A DNA stretch of 1,428 nt from NCBI RefSeq assembly GCF_003334785.1, contig NZ_QOWV01000060.1. The stretch is one strand, 5' to 3'. This document shows positions 1 through 1,428 of the stretch, piece by piece. How positions within the stretch are numbered: position 1 is the stretch's first letter; the number at the start of each line of letters is the position of its first letter. The position numbers and the translations under genes are program-made. The notes beneath the pieces are model-generated. The model was not told the DNA's origin, did no database searches, and saw nothing but the letters and a program-made list of their open reading frames with translations. Source of the stretch: Escherichia coli. GTDB lineage: Bacteria > Pseudomonadota > Gammaproteobacteria > Enterobacterales > Enterobacteriaceae.

Positions 1-119
1 GTGGAGGTGAAGGCCACGCCGGGTTCATGAAGATGGCGGTCCAGGGTTTTCAGGGCCCGTTGAATGAGGCTGCGCTCGCCGGGCGTCATCTCTCCGGGCA
101 GAAAGGAAAGCTGTTGCAT
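1..119 (-). CDS. RadC-like JAB/MPN-domain protein (YeeS/YfjY/YkfG family), 5' partial: only the N-terminal 39 codons are in the window, the C-terminus lies beyond position 1
   Basis: Manual minus-strand translation from the ATG at 119..117 gives MQQLSFLPGEMTPGERSLIQRALKTLDRHLHEPGVAFTS, open to the window edge. I recognise this as the N-terminus of the RadC-like proteins of E. coli CP4-type cryptic prophages. A purine-rich SD-like stretch GGAGAGAAG (124..132) lies 4-9 nt upstream. An in-frame ATG at 134..132, directly after the upstream stop (TGAATG), is an alternative start. Absent from the ORF track because the in-window part is short. Confidence 0.75.
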   Translation of the reverse strand, partial: MQQLSFLPGEMTPGERSLIQRALKTLDRHLHEPGVAFTS

Positions 120-123
120 TGTA

Positions 124-132
124 CTTCTCTCC
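124..132 (-). promoter_or_regulatory. Shine-Dalgarno-like ribosome-binding site for the RadC-like gene
   Basis: Minus-strand sequence reads TGA-ATGGAGAGAAGTACA-ATG; the GGAG/GAGAAG purine run sits at a suitable distance upstream of the ATG at 119. Confidence 0.5.
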
Positions 133-134
133 AT

Positions 135-608
135 TCAGTCGATGATGCGCATAATGGCGCTGCATTCCGGATGCTGCAGGGCGTAATCCCGCAGCCGGTA
201 ATAATGGACCGTCATGGCATAACACTCCGTACGACAGGCATGATGACTGTACGTCATCAGACAGGCAGCAATGCCGGCAGCTTCCGGACTCATTTCAGCG
301 CGGTTACCGTTCATGGCATTGAACAGTACCCATGTTTCGTCATCATCGTCATCCGGTTCGGGTGCCATAAATGCCCCGCCGTTGTTCAGGGTGTACAGAT
401 TCCAGATACCACCGCAGTAGTCTTCGCACAGACGGTCCATCCAGCCGAAGACACGGGGCTCCAGGGTCACCCACTGTGGAATGAGGCCAAAGTGCTGCGG
501 CCAGAAGCTGATGCGCTGTTCATCAGGGACGAGGGTGGCAACCAGTTGTTGCAGGTCAGTCTCCGGTGCACAGGCCGAGGAGGTGGTGTTCTGAGACAAT
601 GTTTTCAT
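135..608 (-). CDS. Antirestriction protein, ArdB/KlcA family (Pfam Antirestrict-type; YfjX/YafX-like), 157 aa, complete
   Basis: Minus-strand ORF ending at TGA (137..135). Protein from the internal ATG at 608..606: MKTLSQNTTSSACAPETDLQQLVATLVPDEQRISFWPQHFGLIPQWVTLEPRVFGWMDRLCEDYCGGIWNLYTLNNGGAFMAPEPDDDDDETWVLFNAMNGNRAEMSPEAAGIAACLMTYSHHACRTECYAMTVHYYRLRDYALQHPECSAIMRIID. The VPDxxRxxFWPxHFG...PQW, CxxYxGGxW, LxNGG, SxEAAGI, YxLRD and HPE motifs match my recollection of KlcA/ArdB-family proteins. This start is preferred over the track's ATG at 785 because it has a strong AAGGA ribosome-binding site 8 nt upstream and gives the typical family length of ~150-160 aa. Confidence 0.85.
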   Translation of the reverse strand: MKTLSQNTTSSACAPETDLQQLVATLVPDEQRISFWPQHFGLIPQWVTLEPRVFGWMDRLCEDYCGGIWNLYTLNNGGAFMAPEPDDDDDETWVLFNAMNGNRAEMSPEAAGIAACLMTYSHHACRTECYAMTVHYYRLRDYALQHPECSAIMRIID

Positions 609-616
609 GTATGAAA

Positions 617-621
617 TCCTT
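617..621 (-). promoter_or_regulatory. Shine-Dalgarno site (AAGGA) for the antirestriction gene
   Basis: Minus-strand sequence reads TTACAAGGATTTCATACATG; AAGGA lies 8 nt upstream of the ATG at 608. Confidence 0.65.
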
Positions 622-794
622 GTAATGTGAATAAATGAGAGGGAGTAAAGGTCGGGAGCTGGCAACATCACGTTCATCACTGACCGTGATGACCCGGTAA
701 TATCAGGGATGAATGATATTCGGCTGAAATTCCGGACAGCCGTACGCGTAACCGTTCCGGTCACAGACGGATGGCCTGATGCCATTGCCTGTAC

Positions 795-812
795 TCAGTC
801 TGCACAGACTGA
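795..812. repeat. 18 bp near-perfect palindrome tCAGTCTGcaCAGACTGa (candidate operator or short hairpin)
   Basis: Plus strand 795..812 is tcagtctgcacagactga: 8 bp arms (795..802 and 805..812) around a 2 bp centre. No downstream T-run on either strand, so it does not look like an intrinsic terminator. Confidence 0.45.
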
Positions 813-909
813 TTTCTCCGGGACGGTAAAGCAGACGGGTATACCAGGCGCACAGGTCATCATCAGAAATGGAACGACATCCCGGCAGCGCCTTCAGGGA
901 CAGGCTGCA

Positions 910-1428
910 TCAGCGCAGGCTCTCCAGCAGCGTTTCCGCCATCACCCACAATGCGCGGTTGAGCTTAATATCGGTGTCGATGCTGTGAATGGCACGGGTG
1001 TGGATACGTTTTCCTCTGGCACTGCGACCGGAAATCCCGCCTTTCAGCATATTCTCCTGGATGGTCTGATAAGTACTCCACAGGTCCTTACCGTAATCCT
1101 CCCTGCGTCGCGGTGTCAGAATGTCAGCGGTGGTGACGGGCTGATGTTCGTCACCATAACGGTAAGTCAGTGCCGCCTGTGCCAGCGCCTGGCGTGCCGG
1201 TGGCGGCAGAATCAGCGACTGCATGGCATCACGCTTTTCCTCAATCCGGTCAAAAACCCCCACCACCTCGTAAGCCCCTTCAATGACTCTGTCCACCACA
1301 TTTCCCCGGTGCGGAACACGCACTTCCCCCAGAGACTGACCACAGACGCATCCGTTCTGGCAGACGAACCTGAAGTAACCCGGCAGCATCTGGTAGCTGG
1401 AGGTACCGTCATGAGAGTTGAGCAGAAT
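910..1428 (-). CDS. DUF932-family protein (YfjQ/YafZ-like), 3' portion: C-terminal 172 codons plus stop are in the window, N-terminus lies beyond position 1428
   Basis: The track ORF 910..1389 (-) remains open in the same frame up to the window edge. Manual translation of 1428..1390 gives ILLNSHDGTSSYQ, running into MLPGYFRFVCQNGCVCG..., so the track's Met at 1389 is internal. The stop is TGA at 912..910. The NSHDG(T/S)S and FxCxNG motifs fit my recollection of DUF932 proteins, which commonly sit upstream of antirestriction genes in enterobacterial islands. The family label is less certain than the call that it is coding. Confidence 0.7.
   Translation of the reverse strand: MLLNSHDGTSSYQMLPGYFRFVCQNGCVCGQSLGEVRVPHRGNVVDRVIEGAYEVVGVFDRIEEKRDAMQSLILPPPARQALAQAALTYRYGDEHQPVTTADILTPRRREDYGKDLWSTYQTIQENMLKGGISGRSARGKRIHTRAIHSIDTDIKLNRALWVMAETLLESLR

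Follow-up and report, generated by a model that had tools for sequence, protein, structure and literature searches.

Organization of the ardB–RadC-like gene junction in an Escherichia coli island module: a conserved short spacing and a probably ordinary internal start

Background

The closest described counterparts of the locus analyzed here are two gene sets of E. coli K-12: yafX–ykfG(–ykfH–yafW–ykfI) in CP4-6 and lfgA(yfjX)–lfgB(yfjY)–ypjJ–yfjZ–ypjF in CP4-57. Both have the gene order of the module in our window (the whole 1,428-nt stretch of E. coli DNA that was analyzed), namely an ardB homologue, a RadC-like JAB gene, a DUF987 gene, a CbeA-type antitoxin gene and a CbtA-type toxin gene. 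The lfgABCDE genes have been called an operon, and the authors concerned suspected that an lfgA::kan insertion was polar on lfgB; over-production of MqsA represses lfgA about 4-fold and lfgB about 3-fold (PMC10846083). Operon lists group both K-12 paralogue sets (PMC5371832, PMC4448311). A literature search for direct transcript mapping of the yeeS/yeeT/yeeU operons found nothing useful.

The yafX–ykfG junction is like that of the window in being 15 nt long and in frame and in the end of the ardB homologue (IID-TGA), but its spacer (CCGAAGGAGCAACAG) lacks the upstream ATG, and the AAGGAG in it is stronger. The lfgA–lfgB junction is 8 nt long and out of frame. Protein identity between the window and the K-12 copies is 67–82%, and unlike them the window copy follows a DUF932 gene, with a gap of 300 nt, as in CFT073-type islands. 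A third K-12 copy, yeeS in CP4-44, is missing the first ~8 codons and no longer has an ardB partner; instead it overlaps yeeR by 4 nt (3,309..3,312 of locus L005); the RadC-like gene therefore tolerates a different upstream partner and a different N-terminus.

The ArdB protein of CFT073 PAI-II (ORF14; PDB 2WJ9) has been studied in a paper whose title reports in vivo activity of the family (PMC2836571); it has the PF03230 domain and the 157-aa length of the window protein, from which it differs by three substitutions. Plasmid klcA/ardB genes have not been reported with a RadC-like partner, whereas the pairing in the window is almost entirely chromosomal in E. coli.

Two general kinds of gene junction also bear comparison. 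The spacing of unidirectional gene pairs in E. coli shows a small peak at +10 nt, which has been interpreted as mostly independent initiation (PMC10666635). Such short-spacer junctions resemble ours in having a Shine-Dalgarno (SD) sequence in or just after the upstream stop, a spacer of 10–15 nt and a start about 9 nt after the SD (PMC10666635); the window is distinctive only in its extra in-frame ATG abutting the stop. Classical coupled pairs, with ATGA or TGATG overlaps, are likewise co-directional with a close stop and start, but the window genes do not overlap and their 15 nt lies beyond the -8 to +10 nt spacing that is taken as predictive of termination–reinitiation (PMC10666635).

Gene content of the window

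The stretch is an E. coli island module, of CP4-type or pathogenicity-island kind, with the order DUF932–ardB–radC-like(JAB)–DUF987–cbeA–cbtA. Its arrangement is ordinary: the module is a very common one on E. coli islands, the junction is of its standard internal kind, and the K-12 operons had already made it known. Among 5,426 complete E. coli genomes, 4,891 give a match to the window, at a median of 3 places each, and 13,461 of the 13,468 matched places are chromosomal. A 99.8%-identical, PGAP-annotated locus in strain TW10722 (L001) has the order DUF932–antirestriction–JAB–DUF987–YeeU-family antitoxin–CbtA toxin–DUF5983–DUF957–DUF4942. The antirestriction CDS has the same coordinates there, and ends 15 nt before a JAB CDS whose start is the ATG at 119..117. 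The features of the window are collected in Table 1.

Table 1. Features of the window, in order of position
Feature	Position	Strand	Remarks and basis
RadC-like JAB-domain gene, first 39 codons	1..119	-	Cut by window edge; 158 aa full length in TW10722
Trivial palindrome	17..38		Only find of the repeat search of the window
Antisense ORF	27..614	+	195 codons
Predicted weak RNA hairpin	101..136	-	GGAGAG (132..127) pairs with CUUUCC (110..105, RadC-like codons 4–5); AUG in loop
RadC-like start codon ATG	119..117	-	PGAP, cluster lengths, co-linear N-termini
Purine-rich run GGAGAGAAG	132..124	-	Begins with the G of the upstream ATG
Shine-Dalgarno core GGAG	132..129	-	Inside the purine-rich run; 9 nt before start codon
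Intercistronic spacer ATGGAGAGAAGTACA	134..120	-	15 nt; strand read and script indexing
Alternative in-frame ATG	134..132	-	Adjoins stop (TGAATG); no SD; not conserved
ardB stop codon TGA	137..135	-	Script indexing
ardB-type antirestriction gene	608..135	-	157 codons and TGA; ORF, PF03230, 2WJ9, PGAP
DUF932–ardB gap	609..909	-	300 nt
Palindrome, 7+7	674..692		In DUF932–ardB gap
Palindrome TCAGTCTG-NN-CAGACTGA	795..812		18 bp; in DUF932–ardB gap
Site of 38-nt deletion	~895..905		Segment present in many E. coli copies
DUF932 gene, 3' part	910..1428	-	Upstream of ardB; cut by window edge

Sequence matches indicate that the antirestriction protein is a member of the ArdB/KlcA family. It is identical to the crystallized CFT073 ArdB at 154 of 157 positions (E=2.7e-110), carries the Antirestrict domain PF03230 over model positions 1–92 of 92 (E=3e-37), and matches the KlcA structure 2KMG (E=2.6e-21).

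The downstream protein is a RadC-like member of the JAB/MPN group, its profile score being above the curated cut-off: with model TIGR00608, whose cut-off is 133.85, the full-length TW10722 protein scores 148.4 bits. The equivalog model NF000642 gives 158.6, below its cut-off of 180, so that the protein is not a bona fide RadC equivalog. Pfam precomputes PF04002 for it, and it matches the structure of a RadC homologue, 2QLC (E=1.7e-24). A JAMM metal-binding motif of the form HxH…S…D is present in the TW10722 protein as AHNHPSGEVIPSKAD (HNHPSG…PS..D), in a part that lies outside the window, which covers residues 1–39.

Anatomy of the junction and the RadC-like start codon

On the minus strand the sequence across the junction is …ATC ATC GAC TGA ATG GAG AGA AGT ACA ATG CAA CAG CTT…. 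The coordinates that the sequence-only reading had given for the stop, the spacer, the purine-rich site and both ATGs proved exact to the base when indexed by script. The GGAG core forms a duplex of -6.4 kcal/mol with the anti-SD, ending 9 nt 5' of the ATG at 119..117. Because about 7% of the 12-nt windows in the same sequence reach an equal score, the SD taken alone is only mildly above chance; its position is kept across diverged homologous junctions. The ardB and RadC-like ORFs share a reading frame in which the TGA is the sole intervening stop (…IID*MERSTMQQLSF…), an arrangement absent from the sequence-only reading.

Which of the two in-frame ATGs is the RadC-like start? That reading had favored the downstream one, and the comparison of homologues bears it out. 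Three independent E. coli copies, as well as K-12 ykfG, have the ATG at 119..117 as their PGAP start, and the large clusters of RadC-like proteins (714 to 6,367 members) are all of 158 aa. N-termini are co-linear across junction classes, with 38–85% identity over the first ~39 residues; those from other junction classes (38–51% identical) align with MQQLSF to within two residues. The upstream ATG at 134..132 has an SD duplex energy of +0.4 kcal/mol, i.e. no SD, and is missing in the yafX–ykfG, Citrobacter youngae and Kluyvera ascorbata copies. Nor are the spacer 'codons' kept as a peptide: they read MERST, MVAGT, MEAGT, PKEQQ or PEEQQ. Given an upstream ATG that lacks an SD and varies between homologues, an unconserved spacer peptide, and the agreement of PGAP, the 158-aa clusters and the co-linear N-termini, the conserved start is the ATG at 119..117; as far as sequence comparison goes, homologues settle the matter. 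For annotation, the value of the comparison is that it fixes the RadC-like start at this codon.

The junction in homologous loci

A protein scan with ArdB, taking one genome per species, gave 39 loci, in Enterobacterales. A RadC-like gene follows ardB on the same strand in 37 of the 39 species-level loci, and the gap between the two is 10–19 nt in 31 of them. The junctions are sorted in Table 2.

Table 2. Junctions between ardB and the downstream gene
Junction	Loci	Spacing	Remarks
Class A	4, plus E. coli copies	Exactly 15 nt, same frame	Spacer sequence diverged
Class B	12	10–11 nt	Usually TGAGG…, SD overlapping stop
Class C	11	Conserved ATG 12 nt after stop	GAGGA overlapping stop
Class D and one Rahnella locus	5		Extra small ORF between ardB and RadC-like gene
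Serratia sp. DD3	2	19 nt	
Trabulsiella	2	13 nt	
Klebsiella pneumoniae	1	1,277-nt insertion	346-aa transposase-like ORF
Other	2		Different downstream genes

SD-like pairing of about -6 kcal/mol, some 9 nt before the start, is found in most junctions and often overlaps the stop (TGAGG…); the anti-SD background has a median of -2.2 and a 10th percentile of -5.7. Across the junctions the spacer stays short, though its letters vary freely.

Homologues with a long spacer would speak against the tight junction that the sequence-only reading had proposed, and we looked for them; the apparent long gaps were all resolved and none counts against it. The gaps of 66–69 nt in class C are only apparent, as the ORF is open back to the ardB stop: its conserved ATG stands at +12, behind an SD that overlaps the stop. 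Those of 228–240 nt in class D are filled by an inserted ORF of 73–77 aa, and all four loci of this class have its start 10 nt past the ardB stop. The gap in K. pneumoniae is due to the insertion.

By sequence comparison, ardB and the RadC-like JAB gene (for an LfgB-type protease; PMC10846083) are a conserved, tightly linked pair across Enterobacterales. The linkage is a reasonable hint at joint action during island establishment.

The class-D ORF (MPYGLSHLNALWDALGKTTV…FHIWSWFESLHDGF…; loci L014, L015, L017 and L019, about 3,415–3,650) is conserved in Phytobacter, Enterobacter mori, E. wuhouensis and Trabulsiella, and is interrupted by a stop in one locus (L017). A related ORF of 56 aa occupies the same gap in Rahnella (L043), where its start lies further downstream. 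In K. pneumoniae ATCC 13883 (L029) the transposase-like ORF at 3,534..4,574 splits the pair.

Initiation of RadC-like translation

The reading that we consider probable is that of an ordinary polycistronic internal junction, in which one mRNA serves both genes and the RadC-like gene is initiated mainly through its own SD. A single mRNA would carry ardB and the RadC-like gene; the ATG at 119..117 would be served by the GGAG just past the ardB stop; and most RadC-like synthesis would come from ordinary SD-dependent initiation. Ribosomes terminating on ardB would halt 15 nt upstream, covering the SD site, and so may help somewhat, through transient opening of a weak SD hairpin or occasional reinitiation.

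How much, then, could upstream translation contribute? In native E. coli gene pairs reinitiation is down by 40–80% at +14 nt and nearly gone by ~20 nt, and spacings of 11–20 nt form a gene-specific, 'variable' zone in which it is much reduced (PMC10666635). A 15-nt spacer with its own SD fits the ordinary, mostly independently initiated class of junctions, to judge by analogy with these pairs. As to the relative weight of de novo and coupled initiation, coupling is probably weak and would give at most a modest boost; the translational coupling raised by the sequence-only reading is thus possible but unsupported.

Two models of coupling are current, RNA unfolding and ribosome scanning with reinitiation (PMC12548453). 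In its strong form the second would have a ribosome from the TGA at 137..135 restart at the nearest AUG, whether that at 134..132, giving a MERST-extended protein, or that at 119..117, and RadC-like output would be stoichiometrically tied to ArdB. We regard this as unlikely. It is true that the stop has two ATGs within 0–15 nt of it, that spacing is short in every junction class, and that in-frame ATGs recur near the stop (the distance being 0 nt for class A, 3 nt for class C and 5 nt for loci L009 and L011); use of the nearest start is what the scanning model predicts (PMC12548453). However, a spacing of at most ~10 nt, the range associated with reinitiation, separates the stop from the non-conserved ATG at 134..132 (0 nt) and not from the conserved start (15 nt), a distance close to that of the 40–80% drop. 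The RadC-like gene, moreover, has its own SD, while the near-stop ATGs have none, are missing in ykfG, C. youngae and Kluyvera, and are replaced by ATA or AAC in some class-C loci. The 158-aa length given by gene callers, in clusters of thousands of members, also tells against use of the nearer start.

Less likely still is coupling through RNA structure, in which the SD would be locked in the hairpin at 136..101 until a ribosome at the end of ardB melted its 5' arm. The minimum-free-energy fold does pair GGAGAG with CUUUCC (-10.2 kcal/mol, 43% of the ensemble), and every class-A variant can pair its SD tract with the pyrimidine tract CUUUCCUUU. Such pairing needs no selection, because any SD pairs with the pyrimidine-rich tract encoding Leu-Ser-Phe. 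Against shuffled sequences the fold reaches a z-score of no more than -1.72, and 12 of 200 shuffles fold equally well; opening the initiation region would cost 9.25 kcal/mol, less than the background mean of 11.3 ± 3.7. Four homologous junctions folded no better than their shuffles (z -0.24 to +0.19), which gives no support to an SD-occluding hairpin as a conserved element. Furthermore, the SD is itself blocked by the body of any ribosome that terminates 15 nt upstream (PMC12548453). That said, since the predicted local hairpin pairs the SD, a stronger dependence on upstream translation is possible.

Transcription of the pair

The sequence-only reading had noted that no terminator separates the two genes, and this holds: a 15-nt spacer is too short to contain either a terminator or a promoter, and a consensus scan of both strands of the window (promoters at 9/12 matches) found no terminator-like or promoter-like site. 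On the gene strand of the TW10722 locus there are strong terminator-like hairpins directly before DUF932 (5623–5652) and after DUF957 (9456–9482). Inside the DUF932…DUF957 block the same strand has only two weaker terminator-like sites, within or after cbtA, and there is no terminator-like hairpin near the ardB/RadC-like junction. The scan, which is insensitive to non-consensus promoters, did not locate an operon promoter, the 300-nt DUF932–ardB gap included.

Co-transcription, likewise proposed from the sequence alone, is strongly supported by the common strand, the 15-nt gap, the lack of a terminator, conserved synteny and the K-12 paralogues. The genes look like an operon by the usual signs of same strand, short gap and no intervening site, with adjacency conserved across species. 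From a junction with neither terminator nor promoter, and from K-12 paralogues that are described or listed as operons, we infer co-transcription of this particular copy; the inference is safe and not new.

The probable reading of one mRNA with an internal SD-dependent start has a competitor here too, namely a promoter inside ardB or the spacer that drives the RadC-like and downstream genes separately. The K-12 gene yeeS, which has no upstream ardB and overlaps yeeR instead, indicates that the RadC-like gene can function in another upstream context, and a non-consensus promoter might escape a simple scan. But there is no promoter-like site in the window at 9/12 matches, the spacer cannot hold one, 31 of 39 loci keep the gap tight, and lfgA and lfgB are repressed together, with the lfgA insertion suspected to be polar on lfgB (PMC10846083). 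Separate transcription is therefore very unlikely, and nothing supports a weak promoter within ardB.

The shared reading frame

The in-frame ATG next to the stop could make the junction a dual-start device: ribosomes terminating at the TGA would restart at the SD-less ATG at 134..132 and make a MERST-extended proteoform, and free 30S subunits would use GGAG and the ATG at 119..117. Coupled and uncoupled synthesis would thereby each be marked by a proteoform of its own, and might differ in function as well. In-frame ATGs occur 0–5 nt after the ardB stop in three junction classes, somewhat more commonly than the chance expectation of ~5–8% per class. The extra ATGs near the stop or the start (those of L009, L011, class C and the lfgA–lfgB locus L003) all lack an SD, and not one of them is conserved in the class to which it belongs. 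We hold such a device to be quite improbable, on a par with separate transcription. In lfgB an extra in-frame ATG also adjoins the main start (ATGATG, L003).

Programmed UGA readthrough, which would yield an ArdB–RadC-like fusion protein because both ORFs are in the same frame, is scarcely credible: the frame is shared without a second stop in the spacer, likewise in yafX–ykfG (where C follows the TGA) and in class C, and a natural stop-to-Arg fusion is known as a singleton protein (P0029), but a shared frame is expected by chance in one third of cases, the class-B (10–11 nt) and lfgA–lfgB (8 nt) junctions are out of frame, the spacer peptide varies (MERST / MVAGT / PKEQQ), and all ArdB+RadC fusions in the database are singletons that arose by point mutation (stop-to-Arg), deletion or frameshift. 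One stop-codon mutation suffices to fuse the two ORFs in the window (117..608, minus strand).

Other features of the window

The gap between DUF932 and ardB is unusually long; in E. albertii it is ~60 nt. It contains the two palindromes of Table 1, of which the 18-bp one is not significant, since palindromes with 8-nt arms arise in 41 of 300 shuffles of the window. An Rfam scan of the window at E <= 1 gave no match. Many E. coli copies have an extra 38 nt directly after the DUF932 stop, and the window represents the deleted form. Compared with 730..770 of a copy that has it (L045), the extra segment shows imperfect direct repeats at its flanks (CCCTGAAGGCG / CCCCGGAGGCG) and an inner inverted repeat, TGATTC…GAATCA. 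The long ORF on the plus strand is antisense to the whole of ardB and to the junction; in all likelihood it merely reflects how the codons of the sense genes are composed.
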